From positions 385,449 through 449,448 of the forward strand of contig CP065013.1 of assembly GCA_016700315.1 (NCBI GenBank): a DNA stretch of 64,000 bases, read 5' to 3'. The notes under the pieces are model-generated. The model had not been told where the DNA came from. It saw only the letters and a list, made by a program, of their open reading frames with translations, and did no database searches. Numbering within the stretch: the stretch's first letter is position 1; each line of letters opens with the position of its first letter. The DNA is from Candidatus Saccharimonadota bacterium. GTDB taxonomy: Bacteria; Patescibacteriota; Saccharimonadia; Saccharimonadales; SZUA-47. Of this stretch, positions 770 to 55,488 are shown in pieces. The translations under genes and the position numbers were made by a program.

Positions 770-2226
770 GTTCGAAAATAATAAAAACTGGCCTAATAGC
801 AATAATACTGTTGTCCTTTATCGTGATAGTTTTGTTTAAAGTATCGTCAACCGGCCAACTACAGATATTCACAGACGGCGCTGCAAGCATAAAGCTGGAG
901 GTCATTTCAGCTACTGGCAAACGATATTACTATGGTGACAATAAGAAAATTTTCATCCCTAAGGGCAACTACGCAGTAAGGGTGTACGACAAAGACAACA
1001 AGACTAGTCTCTATTCAGCAGTAAAAATATCTGGGTTTTTAAAATTGAGCCAGGTCAAAGGAAAGCTGATACGAGAGTACGGTAGAGAAGTCTTGGCCGA
1101 TAACCCAAAGAGTTGTATCAATTGGATAGGGGGACTGGTTGTGAGCAGTGATTGTGGCGGACCTTTTGCCGAGGTTGTGCTACATAAACCAGCCATGGCG
1201 ACAACCCCCCCGGTGGCCGAGGGCGACAGATCCATATCAGGAGACGTGGAGAGTATTTTTAGCATTGGCGGCGAGTCTTTAGTGCTAATACAAACAGCCA
1301 ACCTCGGCCAGAGCTTGCAAGTTATAGGCAAGTTCTCGACCTCAAACAATGAAATAAAATTTAGCCCTACCGCCCAACTACCCTGGATAAAACAATCGAC
1401 TACCTATGTAGTAAATCCATACAGGGACGGGTTTGTCTTATCTTCAGTTGCGGACTCGAGTATATACTACTATCCCGGCCTCTCAGCACTAGATAAACCA
1501 CAAGGGCTTTCAATCCCACAAAGCACAAACCCAAGCCTAGAGATTCAGTCTTTCGCTTTTTCAAAAAATGGAGAATATGCTGTTTTATATAGCCCGCCCA
1601 TAGACGAATCGGTAAAACAAGACAGCTCGGAGATAGTGTCATCAAACAACAAGCAAGCGCCAATAGTGCTGAAAAACATCAAAAAGATTGTCTACTGTAA
1701 AGAGTTTTTGTGCGTAGTCACGACGAAGGGGCTAAATCTTTACAAGGATGGTGCGCTAACAATGTTTATCCCAAATATTGGTGATGTTATCGCAGACGAC
1801 TCCAAGACCTACCTCGTAGACAATTTAGGGGTGTTGGACTTTAGCCTTGAAGAGTCTAGGGGTTTCTATGTCTACACCTTTAGTGGGTATTCCTATCGGA
1901 CTGCCGCAGTCGCAGACGATGGATTGATTGTGAGCATTAGAGATGAACACGGAGTTCTTGCTATCAACCTAAACAAACAACTAGGAGATACCTCTATAGA
2001 CACTAAGATTTTTGAACTTCGTGGCAAGCCCTATATCGATAAGGTGTCGGTGTATAAAAATATAATATACATCTCACCAAATTTGGGGCAGCCAACTTTC
2101 ATACAATCTATCGGGGGCCTTGGTTTTAGCAATGAGGTAAAGAGCAGCGTAAAGTCGTCTATAGCCAAAGATGCTCAGGCGCTTGACCTTACGTCTTTCA
2201 AAATAATAACGCCACTTCTAGATTAG
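766..2226 (+). CDS. Hypothetical membrane-anchored protein with a large extracytoplasmic beta-rich domain
   Basis: 486-aa ORF with an ATGA stop/start overlap with the upstream hydrolase gene. It has an N-terminal hydrophobic helix 'GLIAIILLSFIVIVLF' and no catalytic motif that I recognise. Confidence 0.55.
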   Translation: MSSKIIKTGLIAIILLSFIVIVLFKVSSTGQLQIFTDGAASIKLEVISATGKRYYYGDNKKIFIPKGNYAVRVYDKDNKTSLYSAVKISGFLKLSQVKGKLIREYGREVLADNPKSCINWIGGLVVSSDCGGPFAEVVLHKPAMATTPPVAEGDRSISGDVESIFSIGGESLVLIQTANLGQSLQVIGKFSTSNNEIKFSPTAQLPWIKQSTTYVVNPYRDGFVLSSVADSSIYYYPGLSALDKPQGLSIPQSTNPSLEIQSFAFSKNGEYAVLYSPPIDESVKQDSSEIVSSNNKQAPIVLKNIKKIVYCKEFLCVVTTKGLNLYKDGALTMFIPNIGDVIADDSKTYLVDNLGVLDFSLEESRGFYVYTFSGYSYRTAAVADDGLIVSIRDEHGVLAINLNKQLGDTSIDTKIFELRGKPYIDKVSVYKNIIYISPNLGQPTFIQSIGGLGFSNEVKSSVKSSIAKDAQALDLTSFKIITPLLD

Positions 2227-3287
2227 CCTATAGCAATTATCGTTGCGCCTTCTTGGAAATGCTCTATTACTACGTCGGCGTCGGTGGTCGTGATAAATGT
2301 TTGATAGTTTTTGAGTCTCTCGGCCAAAGCTTTGCGGCGGCGACCGTCAAGCTCGCTAAAGACATCGTCGAGCAGCAGGATGGGGCTTTGAGTCTTTGAC
2401 GACATCTCGAGCTCAATTATTTTGAGCGCCAGGAGTAGGCTCCGGACTTCGCCACGACTGGCTCGCTCGCGAGCATCTACGCCTTCGAACAGGACAACAA
2501 AGTCGTCGCGATGCGGCCCGCTAACAGTAAAACCGGTTTCTAGCTCTAGCGTGTGCTTAGACTTAAGCCTGGCCAGCAGTTTACTGCCGTAGCTTTGGTC
2601 GTAGGCTATCTTAGTAGTGTAGCTTAACTCAATTTTATTAGCTTTGCCTCCTAGCTGTTTGTAGGTACTGGTAATTTTTTTGTTTATACTTCTAATCAGC
2701 TCGGCCCTAGCCGCTACAATCTTTTCTGCCAACTCTACCAGCTGCACGTCCCAGACAAAAAACTGACTTTGGCTAGCATTGGTTTTTAGTAAGCGGTTAC
2801 GCTGGAACAAGATTCTTCTGTAGCGCTTGAGGGTATCGTGAAGCGTAGTATCAAGACTGGCGGCGAAGCTATCCAAATATTCTCGTCGCTCAGCTGGCTC
2901 ACCCGCTATCAGACTGAGGTGGTTTGGCTCAAATAAGACAACCGGCATCATCTGAGGGGCCGAAAACCTTTTGTGTGGCTTGCCATCTATGATGAGGCTT
3001 TTTTGCAGGGTATCACTGGCGACGACCTCTAGTTTTAGCGTTCTTTCGGCGCCATTTGTTAATAGCCCGTCTAGCCTCGCCCAGTCTGACCCAAACCTAA
3101 CAACCAGCTGATCCCGTCCGCGGTAGGTGCTACCGGAAGCGATCATTAAAATAGCTTCGAGTAGGTTGGTCTTGCCGCTAGCGTTCGGCCCAACAATAAT
3201 GTTCACACCACTACTAAACTCAAAAGAGCCATCGAGGTAGGAACGAAAACTTTGTAAGCGCAGCGAAGCCAAAAAGCTTTTAGCCAT
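2223..3287 (-). CDS. recF: DNA replication/repair protein RecF
   Basis: 354 aa. Walker A 'GPNASGKTNLLEAI' and C-terminal 'ILLLDDVFSELD'. It lies downstream of dnaA-dnaN on the same strand. Confidence 0.9.
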   Translation of the reverse strand: MAKSFLASLRLQSFRSYLDGSFEFSSGVNIIVGPNASGKTNLLEAILMIASGSTYRGRDQLVVRFGSDWARLDGLLTNGAERTLKLEVVASDTLQKSLIIDGKPHKRFSAPQMMPVVLFEPNHLSLIAGEPAERREYLDSFAASLDTTLHDTLKRYRRILFQRNRLLKTNASQSQFFVWDVQLVELAEKIVAARAELIRSINKKITSTYKQLGGKANKIELSYTTKIAYDQSYGSKLLARLKSKHTLELETGFTVSGPHRDDFVVLFEGVDARERASRGEVRSLLLALKIIELEMSSKTQSPILLLDDVFSELDGRRRKALAERLKNYQTFITTTDADVVIEHFQEGATIIAIG

Positions 3288-3309
3288 TAGCCTTTAGCCA
3301 TTAGCTTTT
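3275..3309. repeat. 7-nt-periodic array AGCTTTT AGCCATT AGCCTTT AGCCATT AGCTTTT, spanning the recF start and the 3' end of the four-helix-bundle ORF
   Basis: Read directly from the sequence. 3279-3292 and 3293-3306 form a 14-bp tandem duplication (13/14 identical). 3275-3285 is the reverse complement of 3661-3671. Confidence 0.85.
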
Positions 3310-3640
3310 TCATAAAACCACTAAGGATTGACGCCACTTCATTAGTGTGCGCAAATAGCTTATTAAAACTCTCTTCGTCAAAGTATGCTCTGTCAAAGCC
3401 AAGAATCAACATAGACTTTATCTCGGCCGACGATCCGCGAGCTATTCTTAGATAGTTATTAAAAGATTTGTCGCTAATTCTTTCGCTGCCTTCAGCGATG
3501 TTGTTCATTATCGACACGGAGGCGCGTTGAACTTGGTCTTTATACGAGTAGTCTTTACAGTTTTCAAGTGCTTCGTATATTAACAGTGTTAGTGATCGGG
3601 CTTTCTGCCAAGCAATTATATCTCTGAAATCTTGTGCCAT
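3287..3640 (-). CDS. Four-helix-bundle protein (23S rRNA intervening-sequence protein family, PF05635/TIGR02436; Avd-like fold)
   Basis: 117 aa and all-helical in character, with the family hallmark 'ASVSIMNNIAEGSER...ARGSSAEIKSML'. TAATG stop/start overlap with recF. Confidence 0.8.
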   Translation of the reverse strand: MAQDFRDIIAWQKARSLTLLIYEALENCKDYSYKDQVQRASVSIMNNIAEGSERISDKSFNNYLRIARGSSAEIKSMLILGFDRAYFDEESFNKLFAHTNEVASILSGFMKKLMAKG

Positions 3641-3661
3641 ATAGACATTTTATCCTTTCTG

Positions 3662-3696
3662 GCTAAAAGCTAAAAGCTTGCGGCTAATAGCTTTTT
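3662..3696. repeat. 7-nt-periodic array GCTAAAA GCTAAAA GCTTGCG GCTAATA GCTTTTT between the dnaN stop and the four-helix-bundle ORF start
   Basis: Read directly from the sequence. It is complementary to the 3275-3309 array. It also contains a local hairpin: on the minus strand, AAAAGCTAAAA(AAA)GCT pairs with AGCTTTTAGCTTTT. Confidence 0.8.
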
Positions 3697-4791
3697 TTAG
3701 CTTTTAACGGGCATGACTACTTGAAGGGCACTTGGGTCGGCTGGGTCTTTGAGTATGCATGGCTCTAGCTTACCATTCATACAGAAAACTACCTTATCGC
3801 CAGTCAGGGCGTTGAGGGCGTCCATAAGATAGCGAGAATTAAGTGTCACCGCACCATTGCCTGAGGCTATGGCTGCCACCGCAGAGCTGTTTTCACCAAC
3901 CTGAGACGCAACAGATTTAACAGACAGCTCATTCTTGGTGTCGTCAACCTCTATCTGGATGCTGCCGGCTGCTTCGCGGGCAAACAAGCTTGCCACCTTG
4001 GTTGCGGCAAGTAGCTCGCTTTTTAGAGTTTCGGCCGAGACTTCAAACTTGGCCGGTATCAGCTTGCGGTAGTCTGGATAATTGCCGTCGATCAGACGTG
4101 AAATCACCTCTACGTCACCCGCCTGGAAACGCACTTGCTGTTCGTCAAAAGTAAGGGTAGTCTCTTCGTTGTTGTGATCCCCAAATATCCTTAAGAGTTC
4201 GCTCATGGTGGTGGCTGGGACCAGTAGCTTTACCTCTTCTTTGACACCGCTGGTAGTTTTTTCGGCTAGACGATAGCTGTCGGTTGCGGCAAGTGTTAGT
4301 TTGGAAGCATGGCTGTGAACGTAAACGCTAGTCAGCACTGGCCTTGTATCGTCGCTACTGGCAGCGAAAACGCTTTGCTGAAGGGCTTTCTTGAAGTCGG
4401 CGGTTTTTAGTTTAATGGTTTTGCCGTTCGTAATTGCTGGCATCACAGGAAATTCGTCCGGGTTCATTCCGTTGATAGTAGACGTGTACTTGCCGGTGCT
4501 AATCTTGAGTTTAAAATCATCGCTCTGAAGCTCGACCACATCATTTGGCAGATTACTAACAAAATCCTGTAGCAGGCGAGCGGGTATGGTTAGCGAGCCT
4601 TCCTCGGTTACTTTTGCGCCAATAGTTTCGGTGATTGCAATGTCGAGATTAGTGCCGGCAATTACTAGCCGGTTGTCGACTGTTTTAAGTAGAATGTTAG
4701 CTAAGATAGGAAGGGAGTTGCGGTTACTGGCAACACGCGACACGGCACTTAGTGCGCGGTGCAGGTTTTCTTGGGTTACTTGAAGCTTCAT
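3697..4791 (-). CDS. dnaN: DNA polymerase III beta subunit (sliding clamp)
   Basis: 364 aa. Typical N-terminus 'MKLQVTQENLHRALSAVSRVASNRNSLPILANILL', three-domain length, and position immediately downstream of dnaA. Confidence 0.95.
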   Translation of the reverse strand: MKLQVTQENLHRALSAVSRVASNRNSLPILANILLKTVDNRLVIAGTNLDIAITETIGAKVTEEGSLTIPARLLQDFVSNLPNDVVELQSDDFKLKISTGKYTSTINGMNPDEFPVMPAITNGKTIKLKTADFKKALQQSVFAASSDDTRPVLTSVYVHSHASKLTLAATDSYRLAEKTTSGVKEEVKLLVPATTMSELLRIFGDHNNEETTLTFDEQQVRFQAGDVEVISRLIDGNYPDYRKLIPAKFEVSAETLKSELLAATKVASLFAREAAGSIQIEVDDTKNELSVKSVASQVGENSSAVAAIASGNGAVTLNSRYLMDALNALTGDKVVFCMNGKLEPCILKDPADPSALQVVMPVKS

Positions 4792-5032
4792 GAATTCTCC
4801 TTATATATTATTTATATTCTTAGTTATTTTAATAAGGCCTGTGGAAGATGGGTATAACCCCAACAACAACAGATCAAAAAAAGTATTTTTGGCTGGGCTA
4901 GAGCTGTGGTTTAATCGATGGTTCGAGGTAAAACTTATAAACAGGCACCTAAGACCAAGTGCCGTGCTGTTCACAAACCCAGGCGCTTTCACACAAGCAG
5001 ATACTATAACTAGCCACATACTTTCCACAAGT
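4792..5032. other. dnaA-dnaN intergenic region with an AT-rich stretch and degenerate DnaA boxes (possible second half of a bipartite oriC)
   Basis: AT-rich run at 4801-4835. TGTGGAAGA at 4840-4848, TGTGGTTTA at 4905-4913 and CTTTCCACA at 5021-5029 each differ from TTATCCACA (or its complement) at 2-3 positions. Confidence 0.45.
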
Positions 5033-6424
5033 CTATGCATAGAGTTTTTCCTTTATCTCAATTATGTGTTGGCGGGTGTGCGGGTCAATGTTCATGTCTG
5101 CCTCGATTTTCTCCACCGAATGTATGGCGGTGGTGTGGTCTTTCCGCCCAAGCTCGCGGGCAATTTTGGGGAAACTAAGGTGAAGCTCGCTACGGAGCAG
5201 ATACATAGCAACTTGCCTTGGATAGACAATCTCCTTGTCGCGCTTCGGCCCAACCATCTCGTCTAAGCCTATCTGGAAATGACGTGCGGTTTTTTCAACC
5301 AAGGACCTAGCACTAATGTGCTTCGGTCTGTTTTTGCTATTACCAAGCAAGCTGGAGGCAATGACTAGGTCTGGTTTAAGCCCGCGCATTTCACAGAAAG
5401 CCAGCAGCTGGTTTAGTGCACCCTCAAGTTCGCGAATGTTAGTCTGGATTAATCGGGCAAGGTATTCAACAACATCTTGCGGCAACTCAGCCCCAGCCTG
5501 CTCGGCCTTGGTTTGGATAATAGCGCAACGAGTTTCGAAGTCGGGGTTTTGCATGTCGATGGCCATGCCCCAAGTGAAACGACTGCGCAACCGATCTTCT
5601 AGGGTTGGAATGTCGCGAGGCGGCTTGTCGCTACTTAAAATAATCTGTTTGTTTGCCTGGTGTAGGGCATTAAATGTGTGGAAGAACTCTTCTTGGGTTT
5701 TTTCTTTGCCGGCTATAAACTGGATGTCATCGACGATCAAAACATCAGCCGATCGGTAGTAGCTAGCGAAGTCGGTGTTTTTTTTGTAGCGGATAGCGTC
5801 GAGGAATTCTTGGACAAACTGTTCAGTTGAAACATAAACAACCCTAGCGTCCTTTCGTCTGGCTGCAATTGCATTACCGACAGCCTGGATTAAGTGAGTT
5901 TTGCCGATCCCAACTCCACCGTACAAAAATAACGGGTTGTATTTTGAGCCGGGCTTGCTGGCAATCGCCTGGCAGGCGGCGTAGGCAAGCTCGTTGCCTG
6001 ATCCGACAATGAAGTTTTCGAAGGTGTATTTTTCGTTGATCCCCTGACGGTATGAGTGGCTTAGGGTGTTGCGCCGCTCCGACTGCGTCGTTTCTTCTGG
6101 TAGGTTAAGTATGACGGCGTCATCGCTGCTACGAGACTTTACCGGCCCGGAGTGTATCTTAAAGGAGATCGAACGGAGATTTAGGCCATTCTTTTTTAAA
6201 AGCTCTAAAATCTGGTCGGTGTGGCGGCGTTCAAGTTGTTGCTTAATAAAAATATTTGGTACGCCAATGACCGCATTGTCGCCGTCGTGTTTGAGGAGAT
6301 GGGTGTTTTTGAACCAAGTCATAAAACTGCCTCGTGAAATCAAAAGTTCAATCTCGCCAAGCACAGCCTGCCATATACCTGAAAGTTCTTGCACCTGTTT
6401 ATTTCCCCTCTTTTCTATTCTCAT
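5033..6424 (-). CDS. dnaA: Chromosomal replication initiator protein DnaA
   Basis: 463 aa. AAA+ Walker A 'GGVGIGKTHL', Walker B 'VLIVDDIQF', and C-terminal DNA-binding signature 'KDHTTAIHSVEKI'. Confidence 0.95.
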   Translation of the reverse strand: MRIEKRGNKQVQELSGIWQAVLGEIELLISRGSFMTWFKNTHLLKHDGDNAVIGVPNIFIKQQLERRHTDQILELLKKNGLNLRSISFKIHSGPVKSRSSDDAVILNLPEETTQSERRNTLSHSYRQGINEKYTFENFIVGSGNELAYAACQAIASKPGSKYNPLFLYGGVGIGKTHLIQAVGNAIAARRKDARVVYVSTEQFVQEFLDAIRYKKNTDFASYYRSADVLIVDDIQFIAGKEKTQEEFFHTFNALHQANKQIILSSDKPPRDIPTLEDRLRSRFTWGMAIDMQNPDFETRCAIIQTKAEQAGAELPQDVVEYLARLIQTNIRELEGALNQLLAFCEMRGLKPDLVIASSLLGNSKNRPKHISARSLVEKTARHFQIGLDEMVGPKRDKEIVYPRQVAMYLLRSELHLSFPKIARELGRKDHTTAIHSVEKIEADMNIDPHTRQHIIEIKEKLYA

Positions 6425-29660: not shown

Positions 29661-31520
29661 CTAATTAACATTATATTCCATCGGTAAACCAGCAGGTATT
29701 AGACCTAGCTCAGTGCTGGATATAGTAACGACGTCTGCCCACTTATAGCCATGGCTAAAGAAAGTCTCTTCGTTGGGGAAGCCTCGTTTCTTGCCATTCT
29801 CAATGAGGTAAATGCCGCCAGAACTGGGGGTTTTTACCACCTTGTTGTTCCTGTAGTTAGTGTCGTAGGGCATCGGTAAACCAGCAGGTATTAGACCTAG
29901 CTCAGTGCTGGATATAGTAACGACGTCTGCCCACTTATAGCCATGGCTAAAGAAAGTCTCTTCGTTGGGGAAGCCTCGTTTCGTACCAATATGTACAAGG
30001 TATACGCCAGTAGACCCAGGTGTTTTTACAAGTTGCCAATTTCTATAATTAACATTATATTCCATCGGTAAACCAGCAGGTATTAGACCTAGCTCAGTGC
30101 TGGATATAGTAACGACGTCTGCCCACTTATAGCCATGGCTAAAGAAAGTCTCTTCGTTGGGGAAGCCTCGTTTCTTGCCATTCTCAATGAGGTAAATGCC
30201 GCCAGAACTGGGGGTTTTTACCACCTTGTTGTTCCTGTAGTTAGTGTCGTAGGGCATCGGTAAACCAGCAGGTATTAGACCTAGCTCAGTGCTGGATATA
30301 GTAACGACGTCTGCCCACTTATAGCCATGGCTAAAGAAAGTCTCTTCGTTGGGGAAGCCTCGTTTCGTACCAATATGTACAAGGTATACGCCAGTAGACC
30401 CAGGTGTTTTTACAAGTTGCCAATTTCTATAATTAACATTATATTCCATCGGTAAACCAGCAGGTATTAGACCTAGCTCAGTGCTGGATATAGTAACGAC
30501 GTCTGCCCACTTATAGCCATGGCTAAAGAAAGTCTCTTCGTTGGGGAAGCCTCGTTTCTTGCCATTCTCAATGAGGTAAATGCCGCCGTTAAGATTCACA
30601 AGCGTATGAGTAGTGGTGCCGAACCAGTCGGAGAAGATGCGCCAGAAGTTACGGTTGCCGTAGGCGCTGCAGCCGTCACCTGTGCCATACATGTTGGCCA
30701 GCGCAGCAGCGTTTGGCTGGTATGGTGTGTATGTATAAAGCGCCGCCGTTGCAGAACTTTCTATAAATACATTAGAGCTGCCACAAGCAGAGTTAGGATT
30801 GTATAGAATCGAGTTTACTTGATTTGGTTTTTTATATGGCCACCAGCTTTGACCCATGTTATTGAGATAGTAGCGGAAAAGTCGAGCAGATTCGTAAATC
30901 TGAATAGAAAAACCTTCATAGTTTGGGTCACATGGTGCTGTGTCGGGGCAGTAAGCACCCATTGGGTATTCGTATTGGGAGCGATATGGCCAGTCGTCAC
31001 TGGTTAGAGGACCATAAGATTCTTTTTGGATAGTTGTAAGCAGAACCTTTGGGCTAATTTGGTAGCGCTGCGCTGCATCCCAAATGATCTGGGCGGCCGA
31101 TTTGGCCCCTGCAGGTATGGCAGCTCCACCGTAGTTGTTTGCGGGCTGGCCAGGCGCAGGATCGGTCTTGGGCACTTCCCAGAAGTCCTTAAGACAGGTG
31201 AATGGTGCGGGGTTGCCATTCAGCGCCCCCCACTCGGCACGAGTGTAATAACGGCCGGCTGCGGCGTACCATCTGCCGGTTAATTGTGTGCCGTTGGTGT
31301 CACAGACAGGCACGCGCGCATTGAGGAAGTTTTGGACTTCTTGCGCAGTCATCGAAGTAGAGTTGGTGAAAACGGAATCGTCAATAATACGCCCAGCTTT
31401 CCAGTCGCTAGCACTGACTGCACTAGTTTTTGCCGGCCCGCTAACCGTAATGATACCTACAATTATTAATAGGAAGGGCGTTAGGTGATAAATAAATCTT
31501 TTCATAGTGCTACTACTCAT
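29661..31520 (-). CDS. Secreted putative peptidoglycan hydrolase with five C-terminal 64-aa repeat modules
   Basis: 619 aa with a signal/anchor 'FLLIIVGIITVSGPAKTSAVSA'. The N-terminal domain has 'ISPKVLLTTIQKESYG' (lysozyme/transglycosylase-like E-S motif). The C-terminus is five modules 'G.YL...G.KRGFPNEETFFSHGYKWADVVTISSTELGLIPAGLPM'. Confidence 0.7.
   Translation of the reverse strand: MSSSTMKRFIYHLTPFLLIIVGIITVSGPAKTSAVSASDWKAGRIIDDSVFTNSTSMTAQEVQNFLNARVPVCDTNGTQLTGRWYAAAGRYYTRAEWGALNGNPAPFTCLKDFWEVPKTDPAPGQPANNYGGAAIPAGAKSAAQIIWDAAQRYQISPKVLLTTIQKESYGPLTSDDWPYRSQYEYPMGAYCPDTAPCDPNYEGFSIQIYESARLFRYYLNNMGQSWWPYKKPNQVNSILYNPNSACGSSNVFIESSATAALYTYTPYQPNAAALANMYGTGDGCSAYGNRNFWRIFSDWFGTTTHTLVNLNGGIYLIENGKKRGFPNEETFFSHGYKWADVVTISSTELGLIPAGLPMEYNVNYRNWQLVKTPGSTGVYLVHIGTKRGFPNEETFFSHGYKWADVVTISSTELGLIPAGLPMPYDTNYRNNKVVKTPSSGGIYLIENGKKRGFPNEETFFSHGYKWADVVTISSTELGLIPAGLPMEYNVNYRNWQLVKTPGSTGVYLVHIGTKRGFPNEETFFSHGYKWADVVTISSTELGLIPAGLPMPYDTNYRNNKVVKTPSSGGIYLIENGKKRGFPNEETFFSHGYKWADVVTISSTELGLIPAGLPMEYNVN
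29664..30626. repeat. Coding tandem repeat: 192-nt modules in the order B-A-B-A-B; the 384-nt A+B unit is repeated perfectly
   Basis: Module boundaries fall at 29667, 29859, 30051, 30243 and 30435. 29667-29858 equals 30051-30242, and 29859-30050 equals 30243-30434, by direct reading. Confidence 0.9.
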
Positions 31521-36086: not shown

Positions 36087-36128
36087 CTAGGGTCTAGGGT
36101 CTAGGGTCTAGGGTCTAGGGTCTGGGGT
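36087..36128. repeat. Heptamer tandem array (CTAGGGT)x5 plus CTGGGGT, abutting the galE stop codon
   Basis: Read directly from the sequence. The next partial unit, CTA at 36129-36131, is the complement of the galE TAG stop. Confidence 0.9.
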
Positions 36129-37124
36129 CTATTTTTGTTGCCAGCGCCATGAGTCGGCGCAAGCCTGATCGATGGTTTTTATTGCATGCCAACCAAGCTC
36201 CTCGTTAGCTTTTGAACAGTCGGCATAGCAACTGGCTATGTCGCCTTTGCGACGGGGTTTGATCTCATATTTTATAGAGTGTCCGCATGCTAGTTCGAAA
36301 GCTCTAATTATCTCCATCACCGAAGTGCCTTGGCCTGTGCCTAAGTTGTAAACACTAAAACCTGGTTTCAGATGAGCTGCAGCTGCTGCATGCCCCAGTG
36401 CTAGATCAACCACATGGATGTAGTCACGTACGCCTGTCCCGTCAGGCGTATCGTAGTCGTTCCCGAACACACCAACACTTTCTAGTTCACCTGACGCCAC
36501 TTTAGCAACGTAGGGAAGCAAGTTGTTAGGAATACCGTTGGGGTCTTCGCCTATTAGGCCGCTGGAGTGAGCGCCGATAGGGTTGAAGTATCTCAGTGAG
36601 GTGATTTGCCAGTCGGGGTCGGATACACAAAGATCACTCAGAATCTGTTCGATCATGTACTTTGTTTGGCCGTATGGATTTGTTATCCCGACACCGACCT
36701 GTGAAGTTTCTTTGAGCGGCAGCTCGCTAGGGTTGCCATAAACGGTGGCTGACGAGCTGAAAATTAGTTTTTTGACGCCTACCTCATGCATAACTTCGCA
36801 GAGTGTTAGGGTAGAGTCAAGGTTGTTACGATAATACGCAAGTGGTTGAGCGACAGACTCGCCAACGGCTTTTAGGCCGGCAAAGTGTATAACGATTTCA
36901 ACTTTGTTTTCAGTAAATATACTTTGTAAAGCTACTTTGTCGCATAAGTCTGCTTGGTAAAACTTTATTTTTTTGCCAGTAATTTGCTCGAGCCGATCCA
37001 GCACAGAAAGTTTGGAGTTTGCTAGATTGTCTACAATAACGACCTCGTGACCCAGAGAAATCAACTCAACAGCCGTATGACTACCGATATAACCCAATCC
37101 CCCAGTTAGTAAGTATGTACCCAT
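36129..37124 (-). CDS. galE: UDP-glucose 4-epimerase
   Basis: 331 aa with 'LLTGGLGYIGSH', 'SSSATVYG' and 'YGQTKYMIEQ' (YxxxK). Confidence 0.9.
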   Translation of the reverse strand: MGTYLLTGGLGYIGSHTAVELISLGHEVVIVDNLANSKLSVLDRLEQITGKKIKFYQADLCDKVALQSIFTENKVEIVIHFAGLKAVGESVAQPLAYYRNNLDSTLTLCEVMHEVGVKKLIFSSSATVYGNPSELPLKETSQVGVGITNPYGQTKYMIEQILSDLCVSDPDWQITSLRYFNPIGAHSSGLIGEDPNGIPNNLLPYVAKVASGELESVGVFGNDYDTPDGTGVRDYIHVVDLALGHAAAAAHLKPGFSVYNLGTGQGTSVMEIIRAFELACGHSIKYEIKPRRKGDIASCYADCSKANEELGWHAIKTIDQACADSWRWQQK

Positions 37125-37133
37125 CTACTACCC

Positions 37134-38711
37134 CTATAATTCTAAGCTTAAGTTATCATCGCTGAAGGACTTGCCAGTGTTTTTACTGATAAATTCGTTT
37201 CCGAGCGCCGTAGTCTTGTACTGTTGATTTTGGCTTCTGGGTTTGTCTAGTATAGTGGGCGATAAATAGCCATTGTTTATCAGGGCTTTTGTATAGCGAG
37301 TAAAGTTTTCATAACGATTGCTAAGCCCTATCTCTGACATGATCTCACGTCTTTTCTTGGGTCTACGACAGAATAGCAGAATTAGTTCATCCACTTGTCC
37401 TGTCACTTGTCCTGTCACTTGTCCTGTCACTTGTCCTCTGACTTGGCCTAATGCTTTGGCCTGCTTGAACTCAAGATGCGCTGGCAGAATAGTTAGGAAA
37501 TAACTTAGGTCATCATCCGTATCAAAAATAGGTGCTGGAGAGCCATTGCTTTCCATAGACTTTTTGATCTTTGGTATGCCGGTACCTTTACCTTCTGTCA
37601 AATGTAGCTCTTTGAGAAAGTCTCCAATTCGTCTGTTGCGATACTTGCGAGCTACAACCCGGCCGCTATGTAGCTTCTCTTTGTTTAAGGGCGGCAGTGG
37701 GCCAGGGTAGCTGACCATTTCGATACGATCTGAAAAGATACGAATTTCGATAGGGCTGTCGTCTTGATAACTACGGTGGTATACGGTATTAACGACAGCT
37801 TCCTCTATGGCCTGGTAGGGGTAATTATAGAATCTTTCTGCTTCAGCACTACCTTCGATTTTGCGTACTCGTTCGACAATAATATGATTTTTGAAATACA
37901 ACAAAATGTCTTGAAGTTGCTGCTGTATTGGCCCTTTGAAATTTTTTTCAGTGAAACTGTCGCCAACCTCATCTTCGAATATTACAAGCTCAATTTGAGC
38001 GCATTGGAAAAATTGGGTGGGGTTATCATTAAATAATAGTAGCCCGATATTTTTAGGTTTCAAATATTCATCTGGTCCGGAAACAATGTTCATTTTTCGG
38101 CATAAATCAGCAAATTGCAACGATTCCGATTGTTCTAGTAAGTAGCTGCCAACACTTGCCAGGTGAGCTTTAACTAGTGGCAACTTGATATCAGTAATTT
38201 CGGCTCTTTGGTTAACCTGATCATCAAAAGGTATATGGGCTGACATGTTTAAGAGATCTCGCTCCTCCGAGTCAGAAGCTTTCTTGGTTATGGATCCTCG
38301 TCTAATGTAGTAGTAAAACTCCTTATTGTTTTTGTTTAGATTGGCGGGTGCCTTATACGGCCTCACTTCTCCGCCGGGTACCCAAATCACTAATATTGTG
38401 GCAGTACCTATTTCTGCTAATTCAATTATTGGGAAGTAGTTAGGCCTTAACTGATGACATCTTTCGATTAACTCCTTTTGAATTGTGTCCAAACTGCTCT
38501 TGCTTAAACCTTGTGCTGGTAAAACGGGTCTACCGTTTTTCTCCTCTATGCCCAACAAAATGTACCCGCCGCCCCAGTTATTGATATCGTTTGCGAAAGC
38601 ACATATCGACTGCAGTACGGCAAGTGGGTTCCAGCCGGCTTTAAATTCCAGTCTTTCCCATTCCACTAGTCGTCCGCTTATTAAATCATCTAAATTTATT
38701 GGTAAGGCCAT
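37134..38711 (-). CDS. AlbA_2/Schlafen-type DNA-binding domain protein with an HATPase_c_4-like domain and C-terminal wHTH (putative ATP-dependent regulator)
   Basis: 525 aa. N-terminal 'EWERLEFKAGWNP...ICAFANDINNWGGGYILLGIEE', central 'VNTVYHRSYQDDSPIEIRIF.DRIEMVSYPG...RNRRIGDFLKELHLTEGKGTGI', and a C-terminal wHTH after a GQVT repeat linker. Confidence 0.7.
   Translation of the reverse strand: MALPINLDDLISGRLVEWERLEFKAGWNPLAVLQSICAFANDINNWGGGYILLGIEEKNGRPVLPAQGLSKSSLDTIQKELIERCHQLRPNYFPIIELAEIGTATILVIWVPGGEVRPYKAPANLNKNNKEFYYYIRRGSITKKASDSEERDLLNMSAHIPFDDQVNQRAEITDIKLPLVKAHLASVGSYLLEQSESLQFADLCRKMNIVSGPDEYLKPKNIGLLLFNDNPTQFFQCAQIELVIFEDEVGDSFTEKNFKGPIQQQLQDILLYFKNHIIVERVRKIEGSAEAERFYNYPYQAIEEAVVNTVYHRSYQDDSPIEIRIFSDRIEMVSYPGPLPPLNKEKLHSGRVVARKYRNRRIGDFLKELHLTEGKGTGIPKIKKSMESNGSPAPIFDTDDDLSYFLTILPAHLEFKQAKALGQVRGQVTGQVTGQVTGQVDELILLFCRRPKKRREIMSEIGLSNRYENFTRYTKALINNGYLSPTILDKPRSQNQQYKTTALGNEFISKNTGKSFSDDNLSLEL
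37392..37448. repeat. In-frame 12-nt tandem repeat (CACTTGTCCTGT x3 plus 2 variants) encoding (GQVT)n
   Basis: Perfect units at 37392-37403, 37404-37415 and 37416-37427. Variant units start at 37428 and 37440. The protein reads 'LGQVRGQVTGQVTGQVTGQVDE'. Confidence 0.9.
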
Positions 38712-40663: not shown

Positions 40664-41827
40664 CTATACTTTGTGAAGTAAGCCCGTAATCGATTTATTG
40701 AAATTTTCAATCGTAAATTCTCTAGACTTTTTGTTTAGGTCTTTGCGGTTATAAATATCTGGGTCGAAGACTCGTAGTCTTTCGATTAATGATTCAACTG
40801 TTTGCTGGTCAAAAAATTCACCGGTTTCGCCTGGAACGACATAGTCGAGGGCGCCACCACCACGATATGCAACTACAGGGAGACCTGCCGCCATAGCTTC
40901 AATCGGAGCAATGCCAAAGTCTTCGTAGCTGGCGAACAAAAAGGCCGAGTGTTTTTGAAGCTCAGATGCTAAGGCTTCATCTGTCACAAAACCTCCGAAA
41001 TTTATTGTAGGACCCGATAGAGTGCGCAGTCTCGCTAGATCCGGTCCTTTGCCTATGATCGTTAGTGGTATGCGCAGTTGATTGCAAGCTTTGATAAGTA
41101 TGTCTATACGCTTTGCAGGCACAACACGTCCATGGGTAATAAATCCGCTTCGCGGTTTTGGTAGATGGTATGTAGTAGTTGGTAGATGGAAACGACTAGA
41201 ATCTACCGGGGGGAAAACTACTGTAGATTCGCGGTCGTAATAAAGTTTTATATCATTTTTTATATGTGAAGAATTCGCGATGAAAACATCAACTTTTTGG
41301 GCTGCTTGGTAGTCTCTTTTTCTCAGGGGTCTGACTAGTAGTCTTAGGCCGAGTCGCGCCAGCCAAGCTGGTTTTACTCCTGGATTTTTTAAGTACTGTT
41401 CATAATGTCGCCAATAGTAATGAACTGGTGTGTGGCAATAGCTGATATGCTTTTTGGCTCTAACGAACTTGGCCTCGCCATTTCCGGTAATCGAAATAAC
41501 TAAATTATACTTGGATAAGTCTAGCCTAGCGAACCACCATTGTCGTAGTAGGGGCAAGAACTTTCGGAGTTGTCTAAATGGGGCTTTTTGTAGATACCCA
41601 GTAACTACTTTATTGTCTAGGCGCTTGCGCCACTCGTCCGAGCAATAAGATGTATAAATTGGTGCCTCGGGGAACATTTTGTGAAAAGCTTCGACAACAA
41701 GTTCACTACCACCGCCATATATCCAGTCGGTTACCAAGGCTACAGACTTGGTAGTTGGTAGTTGGTAGTTGGTAGTTGGTGGCTTCACTTGTGAGCCTTC
41801 ACAAATGCGTTTAGTAGTTTCTGGCAT
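40664..41827 (-). CDS. Glycosyltransferase, GT4 family (true start uncertain: GTG at 41788 or ATG at 41827)
   Basis: 'VALVTDWIYGGGSELV' is a typical GT4 N-terminus, and 'FLFASYEDFGIAPIEAMAAGLPVVAYRGGGALDYV' is present. The only in-frame start codons lie upstream of the heptamer array. Confidence 0.8.
   Translation of the reverse strand: MPETTKRICEGSQVKPPTTNYQLPTTKSVALVTDWIYGGGSELVVEAFHKMFPEAPIYTSYCSDEWRKRLDNKVVTGYLQKAPFRQLRKFLPLLRQWWFARLDLSKYNLVISITGNGEAKFVRAKKHISYCHTPVHYYWRHYEQYLKNPGVKPAWLARLGLRLLVRPLRKRDYQAAQKVDVFIANSSHIKNDIKLYYDRESTVVFPPVDSSRFHLPTTTYHLPKPRSGFITHGRVVPAKRIDILIKACNQLRIPLTIIGKGPDLARLRTLSGPTINFGGFVTDEALASELQKHSAFLFASYEDFGIAPIEAMAAGLPVVAYRGGGALDYVVPGETGEFFDQQTVESLIERLRVFDPDIYNRKDLNKKSREFTIENFNKSITGLLHKV
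41748..41782. repeat. Heptamer tandem array (TTGGTAG)x4 plus TTGGTGG, immediately 3' of the four-helix-bundle ORF and inside the 5' end of the GT4 reading frame
   Basis: Read directly from the sequence. On the coding (minus) strand it reads CCACCAA CTACCAA CTACCAA CTACCAA CTACCAA. Confidence 0.9.
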
Positions 41828-42159
41828 GAGACTATTTGTGCTAAAACCAATTCAATTTGTTTTTGGTCCTTCATGTATGCAAGGCTACCAGATAATAACG
41901 TAAAATTCTTGACCTCTAGGGTTGAGCCGTAAGCTATTGTATAAAAATGCAGCTTATCATTATTGGTTCTTCTACCAAAACCCTCTGCAATGTTGGCTGA
42001 AACTGAATAGGCGGCTCTTCTGTATTGGCTTGTTAAGCTAAACCTCTCATCAACAGGGAAATTTTTCGTTACTTCATAAATAATGACTGCTAGTTTATGG
42101 GCTTCTTGCCAAACAACAAGGTCTTCAAAAGATTTAATTCTTTTTTTGCCTTCTACCAT
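41785..42159 (-). CDS. Four-helix-bundle protein (23S rRNA intervening-sequence protein family; Avd-like fold), second copy
   Basis: 124 aa with 'FEDLVVWQEAHKLAVIIYEVTKNFP...AAYSVSANIAEGFGR...AYGSTLEVKNF'. It has the same family hallmarks as 3287..3640. Confidence 0.8.
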   Translation of the reverse strand: MVEGKKRIKSFEDLVVWQEAHKLAVIIYEVTKNFPVDERFSLTSQYRRAAYSVSANIAEGFGRRTNNDKLHFYTIAYGSTLEVKNFTLLSGSLAYMKDQKQIELVLAQIVSCQKLLNAFVKAHK

Positions 42160-42183
42160 ATACTACCTACCATCTACTACACA

Positions 42184-54949: not shown

Positions 54950-55145
<196 letters not shown>

Positions 55146-55148
55146 TTT

Positions 55149-55488
55149 ATGAAATACGTTGCGCTACTAAGAGGAATAAATGATAAAGGTTGGGGGGGGG
55201 GGGGGGGTTGCCCATCCAGACGAGTGGCTGAATGATACCGAACAGAAAAGCGATGTACTGTATTTATTCCCCGAAGTAGACTCACCGGACATAGTAGACA
55301 ATATTGGTTACCGTCCAGAGTTTGAAACAATTCACTACATTCCGGGTGCGCTCATCTCAAATGTACCGCGCAAGTCCCAGCCCAAAAGCTGTCTCATTAA
55401 ACTCGTCGGTACGCCGCAGTACCGGAGTATGACCATCCGTAATGTCACTACCGCACGAAAATTGGCGCAGTTGGTACAGGCTCAATGA
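55149..55488 (+). pseudogene. DUF1697-family protein whose N-terminal third is replaced by a 16-nt poly-G tract
   Basis: 'MKYVALLRGIN' is the canonical DUF1697 start. Then comes junk and G16 (55192-55207), followed by a C-terminal part '...DVLYLFPEVDSPDIVDNIGYRPEFETIHYIPGALISNVPR...RNVTTARKLAQL'. About 70 residues expected for the family are missing. Confidence 0.5.
55192..55207. repeat. Poly-G tract (16 G)
   Basis: Counted directly. Confidence 0.95.

Follow-up and report, generated by a model that had tools for sequence, protein, structure and literature searches.

Four-helix-bundle genes of the PF05635 family between complementary repeat arrays in protein-coding operons of Saccharibacteria and other bacteria

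Open reading frames (ORFs) for four-helix-bundle proteins of the PF05635/S23p family are known from the intervening sequences (IVS) of 23S rRNA genes (Coxiella burnetii, Leptospira, Brucella and the Xanthomonas-type S23p), and the function of the family and the origin of these rRNA insertions are questions dating from the early 1990s. In the IVS of Coxiella burnetii the S23p ORF is enclosed by a 28-bp terminal stem, three or four tandem GACAGAT heptamers lie just before its ATG, their copy number (three to four) varying between strains, and RNase III cuts at the first repeat, both in vitro and as mapped by rapid amplification of cDNA ends (PMC4990558). The PF05635 profile also matches the Avd proteins of diversity-generating retroelements (DGRs) (PMC10053308). 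Here we analyze a 64,000-nucleotide stretch of a Candidatus Saccharimonadota genome (contig CP065013.1, positions 385,449 to 449,448; hereafter the window, meaning the stretch at its full length), in which a gene of this family lies between dnaN and recF, bracketed by complementary arrays of heptamers; gene and arrays together are termed cassette 1. A second such unit, cassette 2, is present in the same window, and most relatives of the gene, drawn from several phyla and from two or more subfamilies, have this build of an ORF inside a stem made of short repeats.

On the minus strand the genes are arranged in the order dnaA (5033-6424), a small conserved ORF, dnaN (3697-4791; Pfam DNA_pol3_beta domains 1-3), a 117-aa ORF (3287-3640) and recF (2223-3287; Pfam SMC_N/AAA_23). 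Cassette 1 (3274-3697, minus strand) comprises a 5' array, the 117-aa ORF, a 3' array and the first five codons of recF, its limits being those of the interval over which nucleotide identity to the related locus L081 is lost; it lies on the same strand as both neighbors, occupies the entire gap between them and provides the start codon of recF. The 5' arm (3662-3696, minus strand), which precedes the ORF in the sense direction, begins directly after the dnaN stop codon and consists of about five 7-nt units (on the plus strand GCTAAAA, GCTAAAA, GCTTGCG, GCTAATA and GCTTTTT); the last dnaN codons, AAA AGC TAA, themselves resemble one unit. The 3' arm (3271-3309, minus strand) has five 7-nt units in the form of a 14-nt tandem duplication, with copies identical at 13 of 14 positions, which places ATGGCTAAA both in the tail of the ORF (…LMAKG*) and at the start of recF (MAKS…). 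This arm codes for the ORF tail, the TAATG stop/start overlap and recF codons 1-5 (MAKSF). Tandem Repeats Finder (TRF) recovered arrays of period 7/14 at 3275-3309 (for the 3' arm as a whole period 14, 2.5 copies, 90% matches) and of period 7 at 3662-3678. The two arms define an inverted repeat of 35 nt at 80% complementarity (3271-3305 versus 3662-3696), with a 12-nt core at 100% (3275-3286 versus 3660-3671), and a 9-nt direct repeat, TTAGCTTTT, is found at 3301-3309 and 3697-3705. As a caveat on such direct and inverted matches, the array unit has a palindromic AGCT core, because of which local hairpins and direct repeats between both arrays are expected for free.

Folding of the sense RNA of 3260-3720 gave -130.6 kcal/mol, compared with -107.7 +/- 5.8 for shuffled versions (z -3.96, with none of 100 shuffles as good), whereas the antisense strand of the region folds less well (z -1.48). 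In the minimum free energy (MFE) fold of the sense RNA the flanking arrays pair into a closing stem about 35 bp long, which loops out the ORF and has at its base the stop codon of dnaN and the start codon of recF; the dnaN stop adjoins the 5' arm, and the recF ATG is situated 14 nt into the 3' arm, opposite that stop. The cassette is almost invariant across ten metagenome contigs encoding an identical protein. A common A/G polymorphism at 3281 in these contigs changes an A-U pair with 3686 into a G.U pair in the sense stem, while variation in repeat copy number within the population was considered and found in none of the ten.

Profile searches with the 117-aa protein recovered highly significant matches to PF05635 (E 3.8e-31, 107.9 bits against a cut-off of 33.8, residues 6-108 of 117) and TIGR02436 (E 6.7e-28, 97.1 bits against a cut-off of 24), identifying it as an Avd-like four-helix-bundle protein. 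It contains the core motif Q..RA..S...NIAEG ... GS..E with all of its invariant columns (Q36, A40, S43, N47, A49, E50, G51, G69, S70 and E73). The nearest solved structure, by sequence match, is 2GSC (XCC0516; E 3e-9), and a database entry identical to the protein is labeled 'four helix bundle protein [Candidatus Saccharibacteria bacterium]'. From dnaN to the ORF the minus strand contains nothing resembling a promoter or a terminator, which makes it likely that the ORF is co-transcribed with dnaN and recF. An Rfam scan of the window gave no family match and the neighbors are dnaN and recF, so that cassette 1 is not inside a 23S rRNA gene; the PADLOC defense-system library also gave no match. 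An earlier sequence-only reading of this DNA had reported the ORF between dnaN and recF, the heptamer arrays and their complementarity, the 13/14 duplication, the TAATG overlap and the 9-nt repeat, all of which were found again. Its family assignment is upheld by the two profiles, the anatomy of an ORF in a stem by the 35-nt arms and the fold, and the parallel it drew with ORF-bearing 23S IVS by the tandem heptamers in the RNase III-cleaved stem of the Coxiella element.

Cassette 1 is thus similar to the ORF-bearing 23S IVS in its protein family, in having the ORF looped out by a long stem that the two ends of the element form, and in the presence of tandem heptamers in the 5' arm before the ATG. 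Like the Coxiella IVS, it is without a strong Shine-Dalgarno sequence and, as is known for that element (PMC4990558), would be transcribed as part of its host transcript. It differs in that the 23S IVS are located in helix 9, 25 or 45 of the rRNA, while the hosts of the cassettes are protein-coding operons (dnaN-recF and, for cassette 2, a glycosyltransferase operon), with none of 80 relatives (set 1, below) within an rRNA gene, and in that the 3' arm of cassette 1 overlaps the coding sequence of both the ORF and the downstream gene. Cleavage by RNase III is demonstrated for the IVS and is proposed here by analogy for the cassette.

Cassette 2 is built around an ORF at 41785-42159 (minus strand), recovered in a phmmer scan of all window ORFs (4e-15), which codes for a 124-aa PF05635 protein (Pfam E 6.5e-32, 110.4 bits) that is 29% identical to the protein of cassette 1. 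It is flanked on the same strand by a sugar transferase gene on one side and a GT4 glycosyltransferase gene on the other. Its 5' arm (42153-42180, minus strand; CTACCATATACTACCTACCATCTACTAC on the plus strand) has a TRF period of 14 and belongs to the closing stem of the MFE fold, which here too joins the flanks round the ORF, and its 3' arm (41748-41780, minus strand) is a perfect array of (TTGGTAG) x 4.7 (TRF score 66, 100% matches). The pairing of the arms involves CTACCATATACTACCTACCATCTAC at 42153-42177 and the segment 41751-41775, over 25 nt at 80% complementarity. The arms of the two cassettes are unrelated in sequence, with AGCTTTT-type units in the first and GGTAGTT in the second. Two further heptamer arrays were observed in this part of the window. 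One (41159-41189), the third of TGGTAGA type, falls within the GT4 glycosyltransferase gene some 600 nt beyond cassette 2 on its downstream side and specifies …LPTTTYHLP…, a segment located between both GT domains; the N-terminal sequence PPTTNYQLPTT of this gene product may likewise be array-encoded. The other is a solo array, (CTAGGGT) x 6.4, at 36087-36131 between convergent genes, with no complementary partner anywhere in the window.

Two samples of relatives were analyzed for the same build. Set 1 comprises 80 loci from GTDB genomes coding for relatives (46-57% identical) from Patescibacteria, Bacteroidota, Spirochaetota, Gammaproteobacteria, Omnitrophota and others, and was measured with the two window copies added (82 in all); set 2 comprises 75 non-redundant JGI metagenome loci related to cassette 2, constituting a second subfamily and an independent sample. 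Flanks were scored as complementary at a local score of at least 30, with 177 neighboring genes as a like-for-like control. By this measure 73% of 78 cassettes in set 1 have complementary flanks, as against 3.4% of the control genes (Mann-Whitney p 2e-29), and the RNAduplex z is below -3 for 65%. Arrays of period 7, 8 or 9 are present within 120 nt of the ORF upstream in 71 and downstream in 69 of the 82, with a density near the ORFs of 8.8 per kb compared with 0.71 elsewhere in the loci and 2.6 in other intergenic DNA. In nearly all loci of the set the downstream flank shows the reverse complement of the short-period arrays upstream, typical forms being TTCATAAAG TTATAAAG … upstream and … CTTTATAA CTTTATGAA downstream; Saccharibacteria loci have TAGC/AGCT-type heptamers like those of cassette 1. 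The two arms of a locus are correlated in period (rho 0.58) and span (rho 0.37) and have a median identity of 89%. An arm has a median of 4.4 units (interquartile range 3.7-5.5) or about 35 nt, cassette 1 having 5 + 5 units, and at the median the array ends 9 nt before the ATG and the next one begins 4 nt past the stop, often within the last codons. In set 2 arrays were found upstream of 52/73 and downstream of 50/72 ORFs (density 6.9 versus 0.84 per kb), and 56% of 71 loci are more complementary than the 95th percentile of the control. The unit sequences differ from locus to locus, including AAAGTNN, AGCTNNN and GGTAGTT, as well as AGGAATC, GTTGAGT, CATCAAGC, GTTAAACC and TGAGGAA in set 2. 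Further divergent copies of the gene that were met by chance in these loci (L064 1192-1590; L058) also lie between complementary arrays, and a bAvd-like PF22296 ORF in L060 is likewise situated between arrays. A role of the arrays as a supply of stop codons in all frames was considered and dropped, the commonest period being 9.

Variants of this organization are also seen. Hairpins of AAAGT/ACTTT-type arrays with loops of 3-34 nt and no ORF occur at L015 503-584, L067 1351-1429, L055 704-798, L026 100-201, L060 5477-5558 and other places, and possibly represent cassettes that are empty or have collapsed. Elsewhere two or three four-helix-bundle cassettes follow one another in tandem, with arrays common to neighbors (L073 1996-2740; L058 1-1646; L165/L166).

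With respect to genomic context, the cassettes are co-directional with their upstream gene in 72 of 78 cases (92%), compared with 76% of control gene pairs (p 2e-4), and with both neighbors in 58 of 74; about 50 nt separate them from each neighbor, and these spacers are filled by the arrays. No transposase or recombinase adjoins either window cassette or recurs in the loci. For some cassettes the gene immediately downstream encodes a tRNA and not a protein (L001 3387-3457; L075 3517-3589), implying that precursors of stable RNAs besides rRNA can also act as host transcript.

The dnaN-recF junction itself was compared across related genomes. An intact ORF occupies the exact junction in four other Saccharibacteria species (L002, L009, L016 and L053) and in L081; in L083 the ORF is a frameshifted pseudogene with mismatched arms, in L082 an unrelated 37-aa ORF lies in a 183-nt gap, representing a replacement or remnant, and in L084, L085, L086 and the contig P0125 the junction is empty, with a dnaN-recF spacer of 13-18 nt. 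Intact, pseudogene, remnant and empty states thus constitute a presence/absence polymorphism at an orthologous junction. On the dnaN tree, loci with an occupied and with an empty junction are intermingled, and there must therefore have been several clean losses or several gains. The N-terminus of RecF changes accordingly, being MITD… at empty sites as opposed to the array-encoded MAKSF, MAVSN or MAINS at occupied ones. The locus L081 is the closest relative of the window, with DNA-level identities of 94% in dnaA-dnaN and 98% in recF (97% at the protein level for the latter); its ORF is only 53% identical to that of cassette 1, and no nucleotide identity is detectable in the exact interval from 3698 to 3273. 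Together with the tight empty junctions, these break points sustain the earlier view of a discrete cassette at a normally close-packed junction. In L081 dnaN is followed by a local hairpin of 14 perfectly paired bp, and the recF ATG is once more carried by a 14-nt duplication, though of another sequence (GCTGAAAGCAGATG x 2). In the same comparison the 3' third of dnaN has also diverged (about 75-80% identity). The difference between the two genomes is explicable without site-specific mobility, because the divergent tract extends into dnaN, as homologous recombination with a diverged donor would produce; a site-specific cassette swap is weakened as a candidate to that extent.

The sequence-only reading had gone further, in allowing that the cassette could be a mobile insertion and in seeing in the 9-nt TTAGCTTTT repeat what a split dnaN-recF junction would leave; neither recent mobility nor this footprint is supported. 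Distant species also carry a copy at this junction, and those copies are only about 50-68% identical; recent transposition was rejected also on the grounds that the arms of cassettes 1 and 2 are unrelated and their proteins distant. The repeat equals the conserved terminus of dnaN, AAAAGCTA(A/G), which is present at the empty site L084 as well (GAAGAGCTAG and GAAGTCGTAA being found at two other empty sites), and such repeats would be expected from the palindromic unit; the same facts undercut it as a target-site duplication. The occurrence of this dnaN terminus at an empty site suggests that the arrays may have grown from local sequence. At this junction the cassette appears as an old resident of a Saccharibacteria lineage, one liable to be lost or replaced, and not as a fresh insertion. 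In one further locus, L087 (about 1860-1960), the dnaN-recF junction coincides exactly with a run of N in the public assembly; assemblies may be broken by repeat or hairpin cassettes there.

The explanation that we favor, though its chances seem to us evenly poised, is that of a transcript-riding four-helix-bundle cassette whose repeat-built stem is a substrate for RNase III. The cassette would lack a promoter of its own and be carried on the dnaN-recF transcript, and the stem would present double-stranded RNA to RNase III as in the rRNA IVS, the cut freeing the RNA of the ORF and splitting the message of dnaN from that of recF. If left uncut, the stem would hold the stop and start codons of the neighboring genes side by side, and might in this way limit the harm of a 420-nt insertion; the placement of the dnaN stop and the recF ATG at its ends suits such a role. 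RNase III processing is the best guess because the Coxiella 23S IVS has the same build with a stem cut by this enzyme. The arms would probably be kept alike by slippage at the DNA level and by template switching between quasi-palindromic arms, which is an established process, and their high identity fits such DNA-level homogenization. Local hints of a role in RNA come from the better folding of the sense strand of cassette 1, from the 3281 polymorphism that retains pairing, and from a polarity of the arms, the purine/G-rich arm being 5' of the loop in 55 loci versus 3 in set 1 and 20 versus 8 in set 2; an inverted repeat acting in DNA alone offers no obvious reason for this polarity.

Several observations weigh against this explanation. 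Mismatches between arms show no excess of G.U pairs on the sense strand, with 42 sense G.U, 60 antisense G.U and 139 transversions in set 1 and similarly 25, 37 and 111 in set 2, and the stability of sense and antisense arm duplexes is equal (40 loci versus 38). The whole-region fold of cassette 2 attains only z -1.7. About a quarter to a third of the relatives are without a significant stem; these include L081, whose flanks are non-complementary, with a fold z of -1.5 and no long-range inverted repeat. Relatives with non-complementary flanks were what the sequence-only reading had said would speak against its proposal, and this applies in part, the closest relative being of this kind. Stems and ORFs can also occur apart, as is seen in nine ORF-less array hairpins in about 410 kb, and no rnc-like motif was found in the 64-kb window.

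A serious rival, albeit one that we consider unlikely, is that the arms act at the DNA level as terminal inverted repeats or as hairpin or cruciform ends for insertion, excision or recombination, with the RNA stem as a by-product. It would account for arms that are about 89% identical with mismatches that are mostly transversions and no G.U excess, for duplexes equally stable in both senses, for occupied and empty dnaN-recF sites that alternate on the dnaN tree, with the empty ones clean (spacers 13-18 nt), for near-identical genomes that differ by whole cassettes, arrays included, and for the assembly with an N run exactly at the junction. However, a transposase or recombinase is neither found beside the window copies nor recurrent in the loci, copies in the same genome carry unrelated arms, a misfit for one end-specific enzyme, no convincing target-site duplication is present, the divergent tract between window and L081 reaches into dnaN in the manner of ordinary homologous recombination, and the orientation shared with the upstream gene, at 92%, suggests reliance on host transcripts. 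Another function for the arrays, which we regard as very unlikely, would be as binding sites for the encoded protein, with roughly one unit per subunit of a pentamer, in autoregulation or in a nucleoprotein complex, the complementarity of the arms being secondary. A homopentamer is reported for the solved family member 2GSC (Lin et al. 2006, cited in PMC4990558), which may be compared with the median of 4.4 units per arm and the 5 + 5 units of cassette 1; the arrays directly adjoin the start and stop codons, and the median isoelectric point (pI) of the family is 9.0. Yet the protein of cassette 1, with a pI of 7.8, is not basic, and the unit sequences are extremely diverse while the core motif of the protein is nearly invariant. 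In a broader proposal, quite unlikely in our estimate, the cassettes would be a self-sustaining class residing in host-transcript stems of many phyla, with the 23S IVS only its most visible niche, and the pentamer would recognize its own arrays, at about one unit per subunit, and so promote the processing, upkeep or spread of the cassette.

It is also conceivable that AT-rich, slippage-prone intergenic DNA has become self-complementary by coincidence around an ordinary small gene. The palindromic AGCT core does inflate direct and inverted matches, and other intergenic regions of related genomes carry arrays too, at 2.6 per kb; but the control (73% versus 3.4%, p 2e-29) contradicts coincidence, the result is replicated in the second subfamily and second data source, and both window copies show the build with unrelated units, so that we give this explanation hardly any credence. 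As little can be given to the ORF being the Avd accessory protein of a DGR. The DGR Avd and bAvd proteins do share a related four-helix-bundle fold and family with it (PF05635/PF22296), with solved relatives that are pentamers, the PF05635 match to Avd proteins noted at the outset is in its favor, and the protein of cassette 2 weakly matches the PHROG 'Avd protein of DGR'. Unlike DGR Avd genes, however, the window cassettes have no nearby reverse transcriptase and no template/variable repeats: the neighbors are dnaN and recF or two glycosyl/sugar transferases, and the 64-kb window contains no reverse-transcriptase ORF, its single YADD match belonging to a GT2 glycosyltransferase. Moreover, to our knowledge DGR Avd genes have not been described as bracketed by inverted short-period arrays.

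Among described repeat elements, the repetitive extragenic palindromes and bacterial interspersed mosaic elements (REP/BIME) and the miniature inverted-repeat transposable elements (MITEs) resemble the cassettes in having inverted-repeat ends, an intergenic position between co-directional genes and cargo-less hairpin versions, comparable to the nine ORF-less ones here. They differ in that the arms of the cassettes are tandem arrays whose unit varies by locus even within one genome, with no family-wide consensus end; as compared also with a classical transposon, the cassettes are without shared ends, a transposase or a clear target-site duplication. The short tandemly repeated repetitive (STRR) heptamers of heterocystous cyanobacteria, reportedly described by Mazel et al. 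in 1990, are similar in being tandem 7-nt units in intergenic DNA, and we know of no description of STRR as paired inverted arrays round a four-helix-bundle gene. In open-access full text, nothing linking the four-helix-bundle family to flanking repeat arrays was found other than passing mention of the Coxiella IVS heptamers, and an earlier description elsewhere is possible.

Within protein-coding operons of Patescibacteria, Bacteroidota, Spirochaetota, Proteobacteria and other groups, members of this family thus appear to occur normally as an ORF in a repeat-built stem, and the insertions in rRNA would then be a single niche of a more general element. Natural variants that differ in their repeat units now number in the hundreds and are at hand for tests of processing, protein binding and mobility. 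The cassettes also remodel the starts of downstream genes, as with recF here, create hypervariable spots between conserved genes and are probably a cause of assembly gaps.

Certain other features of the window may be mentioned. Between dnaA and dnaN, at 4801-5040 on the minus strand, lies the small conserved ORF (75-101 aa), which overlaps the dnaA stop; it has no Pfam match, and its position is kept in all the related Saccharibacteria loci (L081-L087). Runs of 63 and 16 G at 55053-55115 and 55192-55207, in otherwise normal-looking sequence, are most likely poly-G artifacts of sequencing or assembly. A tandem repeat of 192/384 nt at 29662-30587 (4.8 copies, score 1852) encodes the C-terminal 64-aa modules of a protein of 619 aa that looks secreted (29661-31520, minus strand). 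Finally, a 12-nt tandem repeat at 37392-37449 (CACTTGTCCTGT x 4.8) encodes a (GQVT)n segment in a 525-aa ORF (37134-38711, minus strand).

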